Assembly (NCBI GenBank): GCA_964610295.1
Contig: CAZSVR010000012.1
Location: 4,246-68,245, forward strand
Source of the DNA: an uncultured Anaerolineaceae bacterium
GTDB taxonomy: Bacteria; Chloroflexota; Anaerolineae; Anaerolineales; Villigracilaceae
Direction: 5' to 3'
DNA: 64,000 bases
The notes beneath the pieces are model-generated. The model made no database searches, was not told the DNA's origin, and saw only the letters and a list, made by a program, of their open reading frames with translations. Below, one piece after another: positions 46,608-54,957 of the stretch; positions within the stretch are counted from its first letter, which is position 1, and each line of letters begins with the position of its first letter. A program made the position numbers and the translations under genes.

Positions 46608-47822
46608 TTATATGGATGAACGCGGAATATACCGGATAATTTTTTCGGGCACAATTAATGAGTATCCCACAACGAACATGATCAGGTAAACGATCGAAAA
46701 TTTCAGTGTGCCTGAACCAGCGAAGCTCAAACCGGCCAGCAGGGAAACGACCAGCGAAATAATTGACGGATAATATTGCTGAACAATATTATCTTTTTCC
46801 AAAATGCGGATAAGACAAAATATTGGGATCAATAAAAGAGTTAAGTCATGATAGTGGGCGTAGGGCAAAAGGAATATGGCTGCTATCGATATCAAGCCAA
46901 TGTGCTTTTCGCTGATCTCCCTGCTTTTGTACCACCACATGCAAAAACCTGCGACTCCCAGAACATAGCATATCCAGATCATGGTTTTTACCGGCTCTGG
47001 ATCGGTGATCCTAAAATTCCGTCTGACAATACCGGAAATTGTTGGCATATCGAAAGAGTGCGGTTCGTGCCAGATGGTATTCTCAATATACCTGATACTT
47101 TCAATAAATTTATAGGCTCCGTCGATTTTTATCAGCGCCAGACTGATTCCAGCCAGTATCAAACTTCCAATGGCAAAGCCCCAAAAAACGTTCCGATGAC
47201 GGAACAGGAAAGGAATCGCCAGGATCAAGGCGATCTGTGGGCGGACCGTAGTCAGGCTTAATCCCAGGCCTGCCAGTAAATATTTTTTGGATAATGTTCC
47301 CGAGGCCCAGAGTATCGCCCCCAACAGTAATATTGCGGTATCCTGCCCGTTCATGAAACCGCTAAATGTTGGAAAAAACAAAAAAGCCCCCATGTACAAA
47401 ATAACAAGGTTCTCTTTTGTAAACCTGCTCATTTCCAACATCTTAACCAGAAGATGGACATTAAGCACATTAAGCAGCAGCAAAACGATCGCCCACCTTT
47501 TGAAGGAGTTTACATAATCCTCATCCACCAGGGCTGTTGCAAGCGGGGCGATAAAAGGCAGGTGTGTATAAAAAATGGGAACAACTTCATGACCGACAAC
47601 CTCTTGCTCGATCTTTTTTTGTTCCTCCATGTCGTGTATATATTGAAACCCCCTGGTCTGGGAAATTCTCCCGTATGCATAAAAACCGATAAAATCTGAA
47701 CCATTTCTTGTTTTCGGATCTGCGATCATCATCGCCCATAAAAATACATAGACCAGGGACAACGAAAATAAACCCGTAAAGGCAAAGATTCGACGATAGT
47801 TTAGATTTCCCATATATGTCAT
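46608..47822 (-). CDS. GT87/DUF2029-like membrane glycosyltransferase
   Basis: SDFIGFY, NGQDT, poly-TM; AT-richer than its neighbours. Confidence 0.7.
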   Translation of the reverse strand: MTYMGNLNYRRIFAFTGLFSLSLVYVFLWAMMIADPKTRNGSDFIGFYAYGRISQTRGFQYIHDMEEQKKIEQEVVGHEVVPIFYTHLPFIAPLATALVDEDYVNSFKRWAIVLLLLNVLNVHLLVKMLEMSRFTKENLVILYMGAFLFFPTFSGFMNGQDTAILLLGAILWASGTLSKKYLLAGLGLSLTTVRPQIALILAIPFLFRHRNVFWGFAIGSLILAGISLALIKIDGAYKFIESIRYIENTIWHEPHSFDMPTISGIVRRNFRITDPEPVKTMIWICYVLGVAGFCMWWYKSREISEKHIGLISIAAIFLLPYAHYHDLTLLLIPIFCLIRILEKDNIVQQYYPSIISLVVSLLAGLSFAGSGTLKFSIVYLIMFVVGYSLIVPEKIIRYIPRSSI

Positions 47823-47985: not shown

Positions 47986-49383
47986 ATGCTGCGAATTTAT
48001 AACACCCTCACCCGTAAGACAGAAGATTTTCAAACTCTCGAACCGAACCTCGTCAAGATGTACGTCTGCGGCGTCACGGTCTATAACGACGCGCATGTCG
48101 GTCACGCCATGTCCGCGCTGGTATTCGACATCATCCGCCGCTATCTTGAATATCGCGGTTACAAAGTCAAACATGTTATGAACTATACGGACGTGGACGA
48201 TAAGATCATCAATCGCGCGAAACAGCTCAACGAAGACCCGCTTAAACTCTCGCAACGATACATCGAAGATTATGCAAACGACCTGAATAATCTGAATGTA
48301 TTACCGGCCACATCGAATCCGCAAGTCAGCAAGACCATGCCGCTGATCATCAAGTTCATCGAGGGTTTGATTCAAAAAGAAGCTGCATACGCCGCGCCAA
48401 ATGGAGATGTATACTTCCGCGTCATCAGTGACGACGATTACGGAAAACTCTCGGGCCGCAAACTGGACGACATGCAGGCAGGCGCGCGCATCGAAGTGGA
48501 GGAAGCCAAAGATCATCCGATGGACTTCGCCCTTTGGAAAGCTGCAAAGCCCGGTGAAATATCCTGGGATAGTCCGTGGGGCAAAGGACGCCCCGGCTGG
48601 CACATCGAATGCTCGGCCATGAACCTCGCCGAGCTCGGCGAACAAATTGACATTCACGGCGGCGGCAACGACCTGATCTTCCCGCATCATGAGAACGAGA
48701 TCGCACAAACCGAAAGTTACACGGGCAAGGAATTCTCACGCTATTGGGTCCACAACGGCATGTTGCAACTCGGCGGCGAGAAAATGTCCAAGTCGCTGGG
48801 CAATATCGTCAGCATCAAGGAATTTTTATCGAAGCGATCCGCGGATGTGCTGCGCATGCTCGTTTTGAACGGGACCTATCGCGCGCCGCTATTGTTCAAC
48901 GACGAGACCCTGGACGCCGCCGAAAAGAATGTCGAACGGCTGAAATCCGGACTTCGGCCTGCCGCGCCCTCCTCAAAGGGAATCAATGCTGAGTCCGTTG
49001 CCCACCTCGCGGCCACGGCCGCATCTGCCAAGACCAACTTCACCGACGCCATGGACAACGACTTCAACACCGCGGGCGCGATCGCCGCGTTGTTCGAGAT
49101 CGTCAAAGCCATCAATATCGCGCGCGACAACGGCGCGACAGATGTGCAGCTCAAGCCCGCACAAGACCTCTTCCATGAATTCGCAAATGTGCTTGGCTTG
49201 AAACTCGAGGACAAACAAGGTTCCGGCGGCGCGGAGAAGTTCGTTGACCTGCTGATCGAAGTACGAAACGATGTGAGAAAGCAGAAGTTGTGGGCTTTAT
49301 CCGACCAGATCCGAGACAAATTGAAAGAACTTGGCGTGACGATGGAAGACAGCAAGGATGGAACGACCTGGCGATGGGGATAG
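47986..49383 (+). CDS. cysS: Cysteine--tRNA ligase
   Basis: CGVTVY, HVGH, DFALWK, GRPGWHIECS, KMSKS. Confidence 0.98.
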   Translation: MLRIYNTLTRKTEDFQTLEPNLVKMYVCGVTVYNDAHVGHAMSALVFDIIRRYLEYRGYKVKHVMNYTDVDDKIINRAKQLNEDPLKLSQRYIEDYANDLNNLNVLPATSNPQVSKTMPLIIKFIEGLIQKEAAYAAPNGDVYFRVISDDDYGKLSGRKLDDMQAGARIEVEEAKDHPMDFALWKAAKPGEISWDSPWGKGRPGWHIECSAMNLAELGEQIDIHGGGNDLIFPHHENEIAQTESYTGKEFSRYWVHNGMLQLGGEKMSKSLGNIVSIKEFLSKRSADVLRMLVLNGTYRAPLLFNDETLDAAEKNVERLKSGLRPAAPSSKGINAESVAHLAATAASAKTNFTDAMDNDFNTAGAIAALFEIVKAINIARDNGATDVQLKPAQDLFHEFANVLGLKLEDKQGSGGAEKFVDLLIEVRNDVRKQKLWALSDQIRDKLKELGVTMEDSKDGTTWRWG

Positions 49384-49423
49384 ATTAGTCTGATAGTTGG
49401 TTAGTCGAATAGTCTGATAATCG

Positions 49424-49456
49424 AAAACTTCCGAGGCCTAAACTCCCGGAAGTTTT
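49424..49456. repeat. AAAACTTCCG...CGGAAGTTTT hairpin (terminator or RAYT-REP relative)
   Basis: 10-bp stem sharing ACTTCCG/CGGAAGT with the REPs at 508 and 1194. Confidence 0.55.
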
Positions 49457-49480
49457 TATTTCTCAAGTAAAATCAACAGC

Positions 49481-49664
49481 ATGAAAGAATTCATCTACTC
49501 ACGCAACGCTGTCTATGAGACTTTGCGCGCCAGGCGCAGGGAGATTTTCGAGATCGAGATTGCCGATTCCGCGCAGGAAAAAGGAAAATTGGCCGAGATC
49601 ATAAAATTAGCCAATGAACGAAAAATAAAAGTGCACCGTGTGCAGCGCGCCAAGCTGGATAAAG
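49481..49664 (+). pseudogene. rlmB: Orphaned 5' stump (61 codons) of rlmB
   Basis: Colinear with 50827-51010, 47/61 aa identical; own TAAAAT 7 nt upstream. Confidence 0.9.
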
Positions 49665-49668
49665 ATTT

Positions 49669-50655
49669 CTACCGAATGGGGACATACCCGCTTTCTTTAA
49701 CTGTCTCCTGCCCTGCATCTGTGAGGAACCAATCGCGAAGCGCGATCGCAAAACTATCAGGCGGCATGTCAGCGCGCACGACAACATACACTTCTGTCGC
49801 AAGCGGATAGACGCCGCTGGCGATTGTCTCTGAATTCGGATGAACTCCTTCGACTCCAAGCAGTTTGATATTCTCGTCGGGAAGCATGAACGTGGCATAG
49901 TAATAAACGGAGTACCCGATTCCCAGTGTGTCATCGTGAATCGCGCTGATGGGTCCCATCATGCTTGGAAAGATCATGTTTGGCGCATCGGACATTGACC
50001 TGCCTTTCATGACCAGTTCTTCCATTAATTCCTGGCTCCCTGAATTCCTGTCGCGTTGATAGGCATTGATTTCGCCTGCGCCGCCCAGTTCCGACCAGTC
50101 TGCGATTTCCCCTGCGTAGATGCTTCTTATCTGTTCCAGCGTGAGGGAAGTTACAGGATTGTCTTTGTGCACAAGGAAAACAAAAGCATCCAGAGCCATG
50201 GGGCGCACCTCGAGGATCACATCTGCTTTGGCGGCTTCCTTTACTTCGTCATCGGATGGCAGGCGCGCGACGAGGATCAGGTCAGTTTCTTTCTGGATCA
50301 AATTCACATAGGCTTGGTGCGTTCCGCGGTGGAAGATGCTGAGTACAATGCCTCCAGTCTCAGTCAGAGAAGTGGCGAGATCGGGACCGATCCCGCGCTC
50401 TACGACGAACTCCGAAAATGAGGGAAGCGTCCAGGTGCATGCGACGTTCAGTAATTTGCAGGCTGTGAGTATCTGCAACGGATGGGTTGAGGTCGAGCCA
50501 TCCACGCGGGGATAGTTCTGCGCGATGCCTGAGACATCAGGCGTGGGGCCCGGCGTATACGCTCCCGAAGGTGTGATGACTACATCCGCCCTGGATGGCT
50601 GACAACCTGTCAACAGTGCCAGCGAGAAGATCAATACAAATTTTGAAACATTCAT
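49669..50655 (-). CDS. Orphan PstS-like substrate-binding lipoprotein
   Basis: Lipobox LTGC, VDGSTSTHPL, YQRDRNSGSQ, IGYSVYYY; no permease genes nearby. Confidence 0.8.
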   Translation of the reverse strand: MNVSKFVLIFSLALLTGCQPSRADVVITPSGAYTPGPTPDVSGIAQNYPRVDGSTSTHPLQILTACKLLNVACTWTLPSFSEFVVERGIGPDLATSLTETGGIVLSIFHRGTHQAYVNLIQKETDLILVARLPSDDEVKEAAKADVILEVRPMALDAFVFLVHKDNPVTSLTLEQIRSIYAGEIADWSELGGAGEINAYQRDRNSGSQELMEELVMKGRSMSDAPNMIFPSMMGPISAIHDDTLGIGYSVYYYATFMLPDENIKLLGVEGVHPNSETIASGVYPLATEVYVVVRADMPPDSFAIALRDWFLTDAGQETVKESGYVPIR

Positions 50656-50751
50656 TTTAGCCTCCAGATTCGGTAAGGCTCGCCATTTATATTATAGTCC
50701 GTTGATGGAAGACGCGCATGAGCCGTAAAGAACTGCGATATAAAATCTAGC

Positions 50752-50815
50752 AAGTGACAGTCACGTTGCTCCCCTATTTTCCTTCGGGAGTACTCCGCAA
50801 AGGTGACTGTCACTT
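50752..50815. repeat. AAGTGACAGTCAC...GTGACTGTCACTT palindromic element abutting the rlmB -10 box
   Basis: 13-bp inverted arms; TATAAT at 50815-50820. Confidence 0.8.
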
Positions 50816-50826
50816 ATAATCGGGGT

Positions 50827-51555
50827 ATGAAAGAACTCCTCTACTCCCGCAACGCCGTCTATGAAACCTTGCGCGCCGGGCGCAGGGAGATCTTCGCGAT
50901 CGAGATCGCCGATACCGCACAGGATAAAGGCCGCATCGTGGAGATCCTCAAATTGGCAAACGAACAAAAGATAAAAGTAAGCCGCGTACCGCGCGGGAAA
51001 CTGGATAAAGTCCATGAGGATCATCAGGGTGTGGTGGCTGAAGTCAGCAAATATCCGTATTCAGATGTGGTTGAGATCCTTGAGCAGGCAAAGGGAGAGT
51101 TGCCTTTTGTGCTCATCCTTGATTCTTTGCAAGACCCGCAGAACTTTGGCACGCTTTTGAGAACAGCCGAAGCCATCGGCGTGCATGGCGTGATCATTCC
51201 ATTGGCAAGGACCGTGGATGTGACTCCTGCGGTGGTCAACGCATCCTCTGGTGCAAGCGAGCACTTACTCATTGCACAGTCCAATCTCTCACAGGCAATC
51301 GACGCACTCAAAGATAATGATGTATGGATCGTGGGCCTTGACGAGGCCGGGGCGGAGATCGAAGCTGGCTCACGTCATCTGCGCGGCGCGGTGGGATTGG
51401 TCGTCGGCTCGGAGGGCGAAGGGCTGCACGAGCTCACACGCAAGAAATGCGATATCCTGATGAAACTTCCGATGCGCGGACAGATCGAATCATTGAACGC
51501 GGCCGTCGCCGGGTCGGTCGCGTTGTATCTCGCGTATCTGGCACACACAAAATAG
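50827..51555 (+). CDS. rlmB: 23S rRNA (G2251-2'-O)-methyltransferase
   Basis: HQGVVA, QDPQNFG, GSEGEG, SLNAAVA; leaderless start. Confidence 0.93.
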   Translation: MKELLYSRNAVYETLRAGRREIFAIEIADTAQDKGRIVEILKLANEQKIKVSRVPRGKLDKVHEDHQGVVAEVSKYPYSDVVEILEQAKGELPFVLILDSLQDPQNFGTLLRTAEAIGVHGVIIPLARTVDVTPAVVNASSGASEHLLIAQSNLSQAIDALKDNDVWIVGLDEAGAEIEAGSRHLRGAVGLVVGSEGEGLHELTRKKCDILMKLPMRGQIESLNAAVAGSVALYLAYLAHTK

Positions 51556-51556
51556 C

Positions 51557-51646
51557 ATGTCGTTGCGAGGGCGGCGCTCTTCCGCCCAAAGCAATCTCCC
51601 ACTTAGCGAGGAGACTGCTTCGCCAAGGAGCGGCTCGCAGCGACAT
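51557..51646. repeat. GTCGTTGCGAG/AAGCAATC/CTCGCAGCGAC REP-type element
   Basis: Nested inverted arms; relatives at 10084 and 57347. Confidence 0.8.
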
Positions 51647-51663
51647 AATCGACAGGAGAAATC

Positions 51664-53022
51664 ATGCCTCAGGCAACTTATCATTTTCCGAAGGGATTTT
51701 TGTGGGGAACGGCAACCGCGTCCCACCAGGTGGAAGGCAACAACACGAATAACAATTGGCACAAGTGGGAAGAAGAAGGTCATACAGTTCACAAATCCGG
51801 TCTCGCCTGTGATTGGTGGGGTGGACGCTGGCGAGAAGACTTCGACCGCGCCGCCGAATCAGGTCAGAACGCGCATCGTTTATCTGTGGAGTGGAGCCGC
51901 ATTCAACCCACGCCCGATACATGGAATGAGGACGCGCTCGAAAAATATCGAACTATGTTGCGCGGGCTACGCGAGCGCGGCATCACGCCGATGGTCACGC
52001 TTCATCACTTCACCGATCCGCTATGGCTTACCGAACGCGGCGCCCATTCGACACTCCCTTCGGTCGCAGGGCAAGCATGGGAGACGGAAGAGGTTGTGCC
52101 ATTGTTCGAGAAATTCACGCGCAAAGTAGTGGATGCGTTGAAGGAATATGTGACGTTGTGGTGCACGATCAACGAACCGAATGTATATGCGTTGAGTGGA
52201 TATGTAACAGGCGCGTTCCCACCGGGCAGGAAAAACATAAGATTATCCATGCGTGTGATCGCGAATATGCTGCGCGGTCACGCCGCGGCCTATCGCGCCA
52301 TTCATGAACTGCAACCCGAAGCGCGCGTCGGTTATGCCTTGCATTATCGCCCAATGGTGTCGCGTATAAGATGGTCGCCATTGGATCGGTGGATGAGAAA
52401 CATTCGATATAGCAGGATCAACATGGGCTTCCCCTCCGCGATATCCACTGGCGTGATGAGATCACCAGTCGGAAATCAAAGCATTCCCGAAGCAAAAGGT
52501 ACGCAGGATTACGTTGGACTCAATTATTACTCTGTGGACACTGTCTGGTTTGATATTTCAAAACCCGGCGAATTATTTTCAAATAGCGGCTATCCAAAAG
52601 ATGCTGATATGAGCGATAACAATTATCTCGCCAACATTCCCGAAGGGATCTTCGACTCTATAAAATGGATCGTCCGCACGTACCCGAACACACCCATCAT
52701 CATCACAGAGAACGGCGTGGAGGACGCAGACGATCACATGCGCCCGCGTTATCTTGCGCAACATCTTCATCAGGTATGGCGCGCAGTCAATTTCAATTGG
52801 CCGGTCAAGGGATATTTCCACTGGTCATTGGTGGATAACTTCGAATGGGAGCGCGGCTGGACCCAGCCTTTCGGCCTGTGGGGATTGGATATAGATACAC
52901 AAAAACGCATCAGACGCCCAAGCGTGGATTTGTATGCTGAGATCTGCAAAGAGAACGGGATCTCAAGCGAAATGGTGCAGAAGTATTGTCCCGAGGCGTT
53001 TGACAAGCTATTCCCTGTTTGA
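51664..53022 (+). CDS. GH1 beta-glucosidase with an 11-aa repeat-derived insertion
   Basis: ATASHQVEG, TLHHF, TINEP, ITENG, WSLVDNFEW. Confidence 0.92.
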   Translation: MPQATYHFPKGFLWGTATASHQVEGNNTNNNWHKWEEEGHTVHKSGLACDWWGGRWREDFDRAAESGQNAHRLSVEWSRIQPTPDTWNEDALEKYRTMLRGLRERGITPMVTLHHFTDPLWLTERGAHSTLPSVAGQAWETEEVVPLFEKFTRKVVDALKEYVTLWCTINEPNVYALSGYVTGAFPPGRKNIRLSMRVIANMLRGHAAAYRAIHELQPEARVGYALHYRPMVSRIRWSPLDRWMRNIRYSRINMGFPSAISTGVMRSPVGNQSIPEAKGTQDYVGLNYYSVDTVWFDISKPGELFSNSGYPKDADMSDNNYLANIPEGIFDSIKWIVRTYPNTPIIITENGVEDADDHMRPRYLAQHLHQVWRAVNFNWPVKGYFHWSLVDNFEWERGWTQPFGLWGLDIDTQKRIRRPSVDLYAEICKENGISSEMVQKYCPEAFDKLFPV

Positions 53023-53050
53023 TCGGAAAGAAAGTGAAGGAGAATTGGAC

Positions 53051-53857
53051 ATGGATCTCAAAATTCAACTTACAGGTTTGAACGAATTGCTATCCATTAT
53101 CTATGGGGACAAGCTGCAGTTGAGCACCTTGCTGCGCGAAATCGGATTTGAGGGTTCCCAGATCGAACACTTGCAAGAGCAGCATCTCGAGTCCATTGTC
53201 CCCCAGTTTTTGGAGGTCATCCACAAGCGCCTGACGAGCGATTCAGGTAAGGATACCTATTATCAGATCCTGAGCCGTCGTTATGGATTGGACGGCCAAC
53301 CACCCGAGCAACTTCCTGCGATCGCCGCCAAGGAAAATCACAGCCCGGAATATCTGCGTCAGTTATTCGAAGAGATCATTCAAAGATGCCAGAGCAAAAC
53401 ATGGCAGGCCGAACTCCGCAAGAGCCTGAAATATATTGCCGTTTCTCAACTGGAGAAAATGAATGAGCGCCCGACACGTGAGCACATTGCTGAAAAACTG
53501 GAACGCCTGACCAATTTACGCGGCGCGGCGGACGTGGCCCGCCTGGATTACGAAGCCAAACGCGCGGAGATCCTTAAGCAGATCCAGGCCGAGCTGGATG
53601 CGCTCGATTCCGAATACACGCCCATACTTGAAGCAGCCGACGAAAATATTGCCGCGCTGGAAAATGAGATCAAGACCGAGGTGCTTTTGCACGGTGAAAG
53701 TGTTTCAGGTGGGGTCTATCGCGCCACGTACACGCAGGGACGCGTCTCATGGGATAACGATGGCATGGCCAAGTATGCAGCTTCCCACCCAGACGTGGCC
53801 CAATTCCGCAAACAGGGACAACCCATCGTCTCTTTGCGCACGGTGAAACAAGATTGA
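53051..53857 (+). CDS. Hypothetical protein: sigma70 region-4-like HTH, coiled coil, phage Gam/Gp157-like C-terminus
   Basis: ILSRRYGLDG...YLRQL; GRVSWD...HPDVAQFRK; domain calls are pattern-based. Confidence 0.5.
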   Translation: MDLKIQLTGLNELLSIIYGDKLQLSTLLREIGFEGSQIEHLQEQHLESIVPQFLEVIHKRLTSDSGKDTYYQILSRRYGLDGQPPEQLPAIAAKENHSPEYLRQLFEEIIQRCQSKTWQAELRKSLKYIAVSQLEKMNERPTREHIAEKLERLTNLRGAADVARLDYEAKRAEILKQIQAELDALDSEYTPILEAADENIAALENEIKTEVLLHGESVSGGVYRATYTQGRVSWDNDGMAKYAASHPDVAQFRKQGQPIVSLRTVKQD

Positions 53858-54957
53858 ATTTGCCTCCCGATTTCATCCAAACCATCCAAAGCACGTCTGG
53901 AGAAGATGGAAAACAATTGATCGAAGATCTTCCCAATCTGATCGCAGAGGCATCAATCAGGTGGGGATTATCGAATATTGAACCGATCCCAAACCTATCC
54001 TTCAACTTTGTGGCGTTTGCAAAACAGGTCTCGATACGGCGGCGTTGGTCGAGTAGGACGAAGTCCGTATACTTGCGCCGCACTGCGTTTGTTGCAGTGC
54101 AGGTGTCGAGACCCGCCGCCTACTCGACCAACCAGCAGGACGTAGTACTGAAAATTGGGGTGCCACGCGATGAATCGATCAGCGAAATGGCCGCGTTGCG
54201 TCTCTTCAATGGCGATGGCGCGTGCCGTTTACTAGAATATGATGAGTCGCGCGGTTTTTTATTGCTGGAACGACTTCGGCCTGGGACGATGCTCTCGGAA
54301 TTGGAAGATGATGACGAACGCACTCACATCGCTGCGCAGGTGATGAGCAAGCTTTGGCGAGAAATTCCTGTAGACTCCGCTCAAGGCGGCGTCCCCGCCG
54401 CCGTCCCACAGGGATGCTTCGCGAAGGACGGCGGCTTGAGCATTGTTTCCAAATTTATTAAATTATCAGATTGGTTTGATGGGTTGAAGAGGATTCGTCC
54501 ACATTTCAATGGAGGAACCGGACCCTTCCCAAAAGAACTTTTGGAACAAGTGGACGCTTTTTTGCCAGAGTTGTTCGCGGATGAAAACGTAAATCTCATA
54601 CATGGGGATTTTCATCACTTCAATGTGTTGCTGTCAGACCGCGGCTGGCTGGCGATCGATCCCAAAGGCGTGATCGGCCCAGTGGGTTATGAGGTGGGTC
54701 CGTTCATGCTCAACCCGTGGAGCGGCATCTCGGACGCGCACCAGTTCAAGGCTTGTCCTGAGCGAAGTCGAAGGGTCCAGGCAGAGAGGCGGGTGAGTAT
54801 CCTTTCAGAGAGACTCGGCTGGGAGCGCGAAAAGATCATTCAGTGGGCAACCGCCCATGCCGTCTTATCTGCATGGTGGAGCATAGAAGATGGCGGGGAA
54901 GAAACGGGTTGGGAGTATTCGATGTGGTGTGCACAGATGTTTTCAGAGATTAAATAA
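53854..54957 (+). CDS. Aminoglycoside/hydroxyurea resistance kinase (APH(6)-like) with three repeat-derived in-frame insertions
   Basis: VVLKIG, LLLERL, HGDFHHFN, IDPKG. Confidence 0.85.
   Translation: MNLPPDFIQTIQSTSGEDGKQLIEDLPNLIAEASIRWGLSNIEPIPNLSFNFVAFAKQVSIRRRWSSRTKSVYLRRTAFVAVQVSRPAAYSTNQQDVVLKIGVPRDESISEMAALRLFNGDGACRLLEYDESRGFLLLERLRPGTMLSELEDDDERTHIAAQVMSKLWREIPVDSAQGGVPAAVPQGCFAKDGGLSIVSKFIKLSDWFDGLKRIRPHFNGGTGPFPKELLEQVDAFLPELFADENVNLIHGDFHHFNVLLSDRGWLAIDPKGVIGPVGYEVGPFMLNPWSGISDAHQFKACPERSRRVQAERRVSILSERLGWEREKIIQWATAHAVLSAWWSIEDGGEETGWEYSMWCAQMFSEIK

Follow-up and report, generated by a model that had tools for sequence, protein, structure and literature searches.

A PstS-like gene inserted at the start of rlmB has left a second, allelic rlmB 5' end beside cysS in an uncultured Anaerolineaceae bacterium

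How small flexible genes, toxin-antitoxin and defence modules above all, pass from one bacterial chromosome to another with no mobility gene in sight is poorly understood. Several described processes leave related traces. A single crossover of a circular molecule (Campbell-type) leaves the homologous segment in two copies, one at each end of the insert. In Acinetobacter, a homologous anchor combined with an illegitimate or microhomology joint reportedly inserts foreign DNA beside the anchor (homology-facilitated illegitimate recombination, HFIR; de Vries and Wackernagel 2002). In Neisseria, the minimal mobile elements of Saunders and Snyder (2002) are said to be alternative single-gene cassettes that different strains carry at one site between two conserved genes, exchanged by recombination in the flanks. 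Restriction-modification gene complexes are described as inserting with long target duplication (Nobusato et al. 2000, as cited in Furuta et al. 2010, PMC2853133); the insertions carry no transposase or integrase, their direct repeats of 30-420 bp vary in length and often lie over a gene end, they occur in several phyla, mostly in naturally competent species, and the proposed cycle runs from insertion through amplification or loop-out via the repeats to release. In E. coli, prophage e14 or phage 21 in icd leaves an icdC pseudogene (Hill et al. 1989, as cited in PMC13626634). Here we describe the cysS-rlmB locus of an uncultured Anaerolineaceae bacterium, where a single PstS-like gene lies between two versions of the rlmB start. 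The locus is contained in a 64,000-nt stretch of DNA (the window, G000:C12:4246-68245) from a 3.7-Mb metagenome-assembled genome (MAG) of 163 contigs, referred to as G000. Among named organisms, the closest homologue comes from Candidatus Villigracilis (Anaerolineales).

The gene next to cysS is preceded by a short rlmB stump, and intact rlmB, which we call the resident copy, follows behind it. The features of the locus, in window coordinates, are:

47986 to 49383, plus strand: cysS (Pfam tRNA-synt_1e, DALR_2 and CysS_C), the conserved left flank of the insertion hotspot described below
49423 to 49462, plus strand: intrinsic terminator of cysS, a hairpin with a T-run (fold of 49423-49458, -15.4 kcal/mol, z -3.74)
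49468 to 49473, plus strand: -10-like box of rlmB, TAAAAT, 7 nt 5' of the stump ATG
49481 to 49664, plus strand: rlmB 5' stump of 61 codons (Pfam SpoU_sub_bind), with an intact ATG and no stop or indel
49665 to 49668, no strand: 4-nt junction ATTT that separates the end of the stump from the stop codon of the cargo, read off the sequence
49669 to 50655, minus strand: the cargo, a PstS-like periplasmic-binding lipoprotein of 328 aa with lipobox LTGC (Pfam PBP_like_2, 2.6e-21)
50656 to 50751, no strand: 5' untranslated and promoter region of the cargo, GC 46%, of which the first ~45 nt alone are homologous to other periplasmic-binding-protein (PBP) loci
50752 to 50815, no strand: hairpin AAGTGACAGTCAC - 38-nt loop - GTGACTGTCACTT (-30 kcal/mol, z -6.3), a member of a dispersed family
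50815 to 50820, plus strand: TATAAT box at the right arm of the hairpin, 6 nt 5' of the resident rlmB ATG
50827 to 51010, plus strand: resident repeat copy, the 5' end of intact rlmB, aligned to the stump without gaps
50827 to 51555, plus strand: intact rlmB, for the 23S rRNA Gm2251 2'-O-methyltransferase (Pfam SpoU_sub_bind and SpoU_methylase)

The repeats are 184 nt long and the insert between them is 1,162 nt; nucleotides within the copies are numbered below from the rlmB ATG. The cargo ends in a TAG codon on the minus strand (49669-49671), and the reading frame of the stump continues antisense across the 3' end of the cargo to 49810. Resident rlmB passes the NCBIfam RlmB equivalog TIGR00186 (189.7 bits against a cut-off of 160.15). 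A GH1 glycosidase gene lies 3' of rlmB, with a kinase-like gene as a further neighbour. The PBP_like_2 gene is the sole gene between the repeats, and neither the insert nor the neighbouring genes (cysS, rlmB, the GH1 gene and the kinase-like gene) include a recombinase, as an earlier note on this DNA, made by a model from the sequence alone, had said of the cargo. The locus also has no transposase and no terminal inverted repeats, which, together with repeats of 184 nt that are 80% identical, sets it apart from transposons and insertion sequences (IS). We conclude that an insertion split the locus into a promoter-bearing 184-nt stump beside cysS and an intact rlmB behind a hairpin/TATAAT allele.

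The structure could have been a product of assembly or binning, in which two strains' versions of the locus were concatenated. The genome is a MAG in many contigs with 3.4% estimated contamination, and the two copies are allelic in character; the earlier note had itself named misassembly as a danger to its reading. However, two Logan contigs, L041 and L042, assembled from the separate runs SRR12685303 (5,424 nt) and SRR12685288 (4,202 nt), cover the whole structure at 99.95% identity to window positions 48661-54098 and span both junctions, from cysS through the stump, the cargo and rlmB into the GH1 gene (bgl). In addition, the junctions share only 10 identical nt, too short to mislead a k-mer assembler, and the footprint is present in many genomes, with a similar cysS-stump layout in JGI and GTDB contigs of other projects. 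Such an artefact is therefore highly improbable. Because two run-level assemblies reproduce the whole structure, we conclude that it is real and did not arise in the making of the MAG.

We compared the two rlmB starts with each other and with their orthologues. The copies align over 184 nt without gaps and with 37 mismatches (79.9% identity), and contain 16 synonymous-only and 14 non-synonymous codons, exactly as the earlier note had counted; both end in CTGGATAAAG, and the stump end at 49664 is indeed 4 nt from the cargo stop codon. The match has an E-value of 4e-39 at the nucleotide level (genome self-BLASTN) and 9e-32 at the protein level (BLASTP), with 47 of 61 residues identical. Differences at codon positions 1, 2 and 3 number 8, 7 and 22, and the comparison gives pS 0.487, pN 0.122 and dN/dS 0.17. 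The comparisons drew on 20 genus relatives (G genomes, rlmB loci L021-L040), on L048 and L051, which were recovered from metagenomes, and on L052 and L053; orthologue pairs of the 20 genus relatives have a median pN/pS of 0.20, and over nt 61-183 only, the stump-resident pair has 0.25 against an orthologue median of 0.24. The proposal that both copies evolved under selection in different lineages is supported by these ratios, which bear the mark of purifying selection, and by the third-position share of 22 of the 37 differences.

Neither copy has the other as its closest relative. The resident copy shares 87.5% identity with L048 and about 91% with L051 (17 of 183 sites differ), and its N-terminus has 93-95% amino acid identity with the closest relatives, a relation that also holds for the remainder of the gene. 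The corresponding values for the stump are 77.7% (L048), about 80% (L051) and 80% (resident copy), with 39-40 differing sites against L048 and as many against L051. Thus, at 79.9%, the repeats are less close to each other than the resident is to the relatives' sequences (87.5% for L048, ~91% for L051), and they fail to show the mutual closeness, relative to the empty site, of a true duplication. Since the divergence is orthologue-like and the copies are not sisters, one of them came from another lineage. We conclude that the copies are different alleles from the genus gene pool and not a fresh target duplication.

An older history within the lineage was also considered: a partial tandem duplication of the rlmB start, into which the cargo was inserted later and independently, leaving the stump as a decaying paralogue. 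When changes were polarised with L048 and L051, the two closest relatives, 21 fell on the stump branch (9 synonymous and 12 non-synonymous) and 2 on the resident branch (1 synonymous), and one derived site was exclusive to the two copies together. The 12 non-synonymous changes on the stump branch would suit decay, as would the AT bias of the stump-specific changes (12 GC-to-AT against 4 AT-to-GC) and the lower GC of the stump (47% against 54%), and the clade-specific residues REIF, IEIAD[ST]AQ and LANE are common to both copies and absent in the 20 genus relatives. However, a tandem duplication within the lineage predicts sister copies with equal synonymous change, and neither was seen; it is disfavoured by the 9 synonymous changes on the stump branch against 1 on the resident branch and by the single shared derived site. 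The 21 stump-specific changes are moreover confined to nt 61-183, with no such change in nt 1-60, a distribution with P of about 2e-4 under uniform decay. The concentration of differences in third positions, a pN/pS equal to that of orthologue pairs, 61 codons without a stop or indel and the lack of a stump in L048 and L051 also speak against this history, and we consider it unlikely.

The earlier note held the cysS-adjacent copy to be probably the ancestral one, and this is supported for one part of that copy only. The DNA upstream of the stump is the ancestral intergenic region: its terminator hairpin and 'ttctcaagTAAAAT' box align with the homologous intergenic region of the empty site in L048, and the same box lies 5' of rlmB in L051, L052 and L053. 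L048 has a homologue of the terminator in the corresponding position, and L051 has one behind its cysS stump. At nt 21, 30 and 39 the stump carries derived states in common with L051, the closest relative by flanking genes (cysS pS 0.265), and the resident copy keeps the ancestral states. The flank, the terminator, the canonical -10 box and the first ~45 nt of the cysS-adjacent copy are thus ancestral-like by synteny with L048 and by the three derived sites. The remainder of the copy does not support the claim. Stump nt 1-60 are clade-typical, but nt 61-184 share only about 75% identity with all alleles sampled. Against L051, the resident copy differs at 6 of 123 sites in nt 61-183 (95% identity) and the stump at 31. 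Over 183 nt, pS and pN against L051 are 0.247 and 0.030 for the resident and 0.541 and 0.128 for the stump; the divergence of L051 in cysS, the rest of rlmB, the GH1 gene and the next open reading frame (ORF) is pS 0.27-0.44 and pN 0.04-0.05, which the resident matches. For stump residues 21-61, the best amino acid match among 120 database homologues is 80%. A degenerate-codon scan of JGI metagenome contigs for the stump allele gave no match, and a looser scan of those contigs returned just distant genus alleles at 63-71% nucleotide identity.

The two copies together therefore form a mosaic. The stump flank with stump nt 1-45 and the resident from nt 61 onward are native-like; stump nt 61-184 and the hairpin/TATAAT region with resident nt 1-45 are foreign-like. 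Stump nt 1-45 and resident nt 61-184 resemble L051 and the other two segments do not, a pattern of few sites that later recombination patches would also produce. A reciprocal single crossover near nt 42-60 would give this mosaic, as would later patches of ordinary recombination from relatives on either side. We tried to obtain the polarity from phylogeny and set the attempt aside: with 184 nt and a recombining gene pool the outcome is a mosaic, and native and foreign are not assignable to whole copies.

The cysS-rlmB junction varies among relatives. It is empty, with a gap of about 50-100 nt, in G008, G017, G022 and L048. In 6 of the 20 genus relatives cysS and rlmB are 0.5-3 kb apart, and the remaining ones have no full-length cysS within 8 kb upstream of rlmB. 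None of the 20 carries a PBP gene 5' of rlmB. Comparison of these junctions, which the earlier note had recommended, identified four further lineages with cargo, each beside a 3' stump of cysS (the cargos of G019, G001 and G016 were judged by eye, without a family search, and that of L051 was taken from precomputed Pfam):

G019: cysS 3' stump of 53 nt, 89% identical; cargo a nucleotidyltransferase-like pair
G001: cysS 3' stump of 133 nt, 91% identical; cargo a Fic-motif protein
G016: cysS 3' stump of about 45-57 nt; cargo AbiE-like genes and IS genes
L051: cysS 3' stump of 125 nt, 94% identical; cargo an AbiEii/DUF6036 pair

In L051 (a contig of JGI 3300019790) the copies are at 460-596 and 1517-1653, and the AbiEii/DUF6036 pair lies between cysS and the stump. 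The distal cysS stump keeps the ancestral stop-codon context and downstream sequence, orthologous to that of the window, whereas the gene-attached copy has a new C-terminal tail, WRHS* in place of WRWG*. Because the ancestral flank is on the distal stump and the new tail on the gene, the L051 cargo clearly brought in a gene end of its own, and the native end was displaced. At the rlmB locus of G000, direct repeats of >30 bp, a short insert without a mobility gene and an empty site in relatives that aligns to the repeat are all present, as in recombinase-free insertion with long target duplication. We conclude that the cysS-rlmB junction is a genus-wide hotspot at which five lineages, G000 and these four, carry different cargo beside gene-end stumps.

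To find similar structures in G000 we used self-BLASTN for direct repeats of 45-450 nt with a spacing of 0.15-8 kb, followed by hand curation, and kept cases where one repeat copy ends a long ORF and its partner does not. This genome-wide self-alignment, also suggested by the earlier note, upheld the recurrence that it had proposed. At least 12 further stump cassettes were found, with repeats of 46-167 nt that are 75-93% identical (coordinates of the two repeats in G000: C4:19293/21002, C18:2997/3783, C18:49958/50631, C18:32374/33036, C29:94/970, C32:28706/29876, C34:7669/8308, C36:34300/34663, C92:430/1133, C161:291/1668, C43:27668/28439 and C9:50564/50994). Host genes were named by eye from translations, without a family search, and cargos by Pfam. 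The duplicated end is the 3' end of an ABC permease, gatB, a histidine kinase, a UvrD-like helicase, an aminoacyl-tRNA-synthetase-like gene, a membrane protein, an ABC-F ATPase or malQ, and the 5' end of an aldehyde dehydrogenase or secA; for 2 of the 12 no host gene was named. The idea that essential-gene starts serve as landing sites was therefore too narrow, as stumps in G000 derive mostly from 3' ends and from a variety of host genes.

Toxin-antitoxin-like cargo is carried by six or seven of the 12 cassettes. The cargos recognised by Pfam include MazE with PIN, PIN with Phd/YefM, BrnT, DUF6883 with DUF4926, HicB-like (in two cases), UPF0175 with DUF3368, an AbiEii-like nucleotidyltransferase, an aspartyl-protease-like gene, a DCC1-like gene and an amidohydrolase. 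In 11 cassette pairs the differences at codon positions 1, 2 and 3 number 48, 24 and 112 after correction of two probable opposite-strand genes (57, 24 and 103 uncorrected, chi-square P 7e-12). Because the differences are mainly in third positions, a stump and its partner are, as a rule in G000, alleles that diverged as working genes. The companion case at hutH, to which the earlier note had likened the rlmB locus, is a shorter version in the same window: 33 nt of the gene start are duplicated, about 27-28 of them identical (459-1271), and the cargo is a 227-aa ORF (555-1238) for a protein like REP-associated tyrosine transposases (RAYT; REP, repetitive extragenic palindromic) that ends directly at the hutH ATG (1239). 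The two loci are thus not the sole cases of this layout.

These comparisons bear on whether the rlmB locus is the remnant of a site-specific integrative element, of the type of e14 or phage 21 in icd or of a cis-mobilizable element (CIME), with an att core inside rlmB and an integrase that is elsewhere or lost. Such an element would have supplied the replacement gene start, and the cargo and two att-bearing repeats would remain. The layout is formally attL - element - attR with an element-borne gene end, the icd-icdC pair left by e14 is a documented precedent (PMC13626634), the identical 10-mer CTGGATAAAG ends both copies at a boundary inside the gene, and some cassettes have a long identical run at the boundary (39 nt at gatB, 32 nt in the C36 cassette). 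However, a 10-nt run is unexceptional in an alignment that has a 13-nt run elsewhere, most cassettes have no identical boundary core, and no common junction motif was seen. Four stump lengths beside four different cargos at the cysS side of the junction argue against a fixed att site, and no integrase lies in the 1.16-kb insert or its neighbourhood. We regard this origin as doubtful.

The cargo scores 111 bits against the NCBIfam PstS model TIGR02136, below the cut-off of 206.6, and pstCAB neighbours are found neither here nor at five homologous loci. Because of the score and the lack of adjacent pstCAB, it is called PstS-like only. The nearest homologues share 76-86% identity with it and are found between uvrD and lpd (L043-L045), beside a GH63-like gene (L046) and elsewhere (L047), and nucleotide homology to these loci covers only 49669-50700, from the stop codon to ~45 nt 5' of the start. 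By these sequence comparisons the cargo, which is single copy in G000, is a roaming single gene with at least three other contexts. Its GC of 53% is like that of the flanks, with no compositional anomaly. We asked whether the home locus of the PBP gene would point to the donor; the lpd locus of G000 (C73) has neither a PBP gene nor uvrD beside it, and the donor was not revealed.

A 'caagTAAAATca' -10-like motif lies 6-8 nt before the rlmB ATG in most of the 20 genus relatives and in L048, L051, L052 and L053, and no Shine-Dalgarno sequence precedes rlmB here or in any of the relatives. The boxes reported by the earlier note 6-7 nt before each ATG are present, TAAAAT at 7 nt before the stump and TATAAT at 6 nt before the resident. 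A sigma-70 consensus scan of 49300-51100 returned no full promoter, and the -10-like boxes are recognised purely by conservation across relatives. Given the short spacing between box and ATG and the lack of a Shine-Dalgarno sequence, the rlmB mRNA is probably leaderless. Three lineages have a hairpin-derived TATAAT in place of the caagTAAAATca box, and the 'GTCACTTATAATc(g/a)g' arrangement before rlmB is the same in G001 and G016. Resident rlmB appears to be driven from the TATAAT at the hairpin edge, and the stump, which keeps a -10 box and ATG, may direct antisense transcription into the 3' end of the cargo.

The palindromes noticed earlier 5' of each copy both exist, but they are different things: one is the cysS terminator and the other a hairpin of a dispersed family, GTGACAGTCAC - loop of 7-46 nt - GTGACTGTCAC. 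This family has 9 paired copies in G000 with variable and sometimes structured loops (C1:41874, C2:65417, C3:21450, C12:54999, which is window position 50754, C15:44192, C20:39537, C27:45380, C44:7113 and C55:17001). The same hairpin is found 5' of rlmB in G001, G016 and G022; in G022 it is the cysS terminator, and in G001 and G016 it adjoins a TATAAT. The hairpin at 50752-50815 more plausibly belongs to an alternative intergenic allele. Rfam gave no match for the hairpins at E up to 1. Nicking by a REP/RAYT system had been suggested as an aid to insertion, and the 13 cassettes give it no support: the REP motif GTCGTTGCGAG has 0 matches in their 16.7 kb against 0.065 per kb genome-wide, the GTGACAGTCAC hairpin occurs in the rlmB cassette only, and neither is enriched.

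Some further features were noted at and around the locus. Opposite rlmB codons ~47-57, both copies match a terminator pattern, a short GC stem with a T-run (49632-49648 and 50982-50996, minus strand). In the stump this pattern, flagged by a scan, begins to be of interest as a terminator for the cargo because it sits 20 nt beyond the stop codon of that gene, but its fold is no better than that of shuffled sequences (z +1.1); the candidate was dropped, and the match is probably incidental. Between rlmB and the GH1 gene, at 51556-51655, there is a REP-like element with palindromic ends (CATGTCGTTGCGAG ... CTCGCAGCGACAT), whose core motif has 243 matches in G000 at <=1 mismatch. On the other side, a 404-aa membrane protein gene (46608-47822, minus strand; GT87 family in the L053 homologue) lies between a PIN-TRAM gene and cysS. 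The gene is present there in G000, L048 and L053 and missing in 12 genus relatives, which makes this another variable intergenic slot.

How the cargo entered can be considered in the light of the mosaic and of the recurrence. On balance we think that host recombination, with no recombinase devoted to the task, spliced DNA from a related Anaerolineales lineage into the rlmB start. This DNA would comprise one PstS-like gene together with the donor's rlmB upstream region (hairpin and TATAAT) and rlmB start. Homology between the gene ends of donor and recipient would guide one crossover, and the second joint, 4 nt beyond the stop codon of the cargo, would be illegitimate. The illegitimate joint could be made in the same event, as in HFIR, or earlier, if a circular molecule of gene end and cargo formed and then entered by a single crossover. 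In the HFIR variant the crossover would lie downstream in rlmB and the cargo end would be joined to recipient rlmB nt 184, which predicts a wholly native stump; the circle variant predicts reciprocal chimeras. The mosaic fits the single crossover of a circle, or HFIR followed by recombination patches. The same process would act genome-wide and be most visible around toxin-antitoxin cargo; because direct repeats are prone to loop-out, addictive cargo of this kind would come to dominate the surviving cassettes.

Several observations weigh against entry by host recombination. The stump and the resident are only 80% identical overall with a longest identical run of 13 nt, which makes a poor substrate for RecA-type recombination, and a single crossover would have to fall within about 50 nt of 88% identity (nt 1-60). 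Simple HFIR predicts a wholly native stump, yet the segment that diverges most is stump nt 61-184. Finally, no donor with a stump-type allele, and no stump-less PBP-hairpin-rlmB arrangement, was found among the 20 genus relatives, the 120 database homologues and the JGI metagenome contigs.

A bolder and more tentative possibility, to which we give limited credence, is that stump cassettes are recombinase-free self-propagating modules, in which a circle of the diverged end of a conserved gene and a small cargo loops out through recombination of stump with gene, is transferred to a relative and re-enters at the homologous gene end there by a single crossover. If this were so, the supplied gene end, here with a promoter as well, would make the insertion harmless, toxin-antitoxin cargo would block its loss, and conserved gene ends would be portable landing pads across the genus.

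If entry is by host recombination, incoming DNA brings the donor's own neighbouring gene end, possibly with a promoter, and the gene at the landing site keeps an intact start and an adjacent -10-like box. The event leaves a countable signature, allelic gene-end stumps with mainly third-position differences, which could offer a measure of gene gain through recombination in uncultivated lineages, for example the Anaerolineales of activated sludge. It also carries a warning for annotation, since short 'N-terminal fragment' ORFs beside housekeeping genes can be insertion scars.

The locus can be set against the described systems in turn. Minimal mobile elements are exchanged by double crossover, which leaves no duplicated gene ends, unlike the rlmB locus. 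HFIR and Campbell-type integration are laboratory events with high-identity anchors, whereas the repeats here are natural products of 75-94% identity. To our knowledge, natural gene-end repeats of 75-94% identity at a recurrent hotspot and with enrichment for toxin-antitoxin cargo have not been described for Chloroflexota. The likeness to the long target duplications of restriction-modification complexes (PMC2853133) lies in a small recombinase-free cargo between long direct repeats at a gene end. The repeats of those insertions are given there as 94-100% identical and closer to each other than to the empty site, and hence as true duplications; those at rlmB are 80% identical and orthologue-like, and one is closer to relatives, which points to one imported copy. 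The cargo also differs, a binding protein here and toxin-antitoxin genes elsewhere in the genome in place of a restriction-modification system. As with e14 in icd (PMC13626634), the insert brings its own diverged gene end, the target gene stays intact and the native end is displaced as a stump on the far side. However, e14 measures 15 kb, encodes an integrase, has a defined att core and replaces a 3' end, whereas at rlmB an insert of 1.16 kb, which holds a single gene and lacks a recombinase, replaces a 5' end and the promoter with it. Taken together, we conclude that the footprint at rlmB is a variant of a known, poorly understood form of gene gain.

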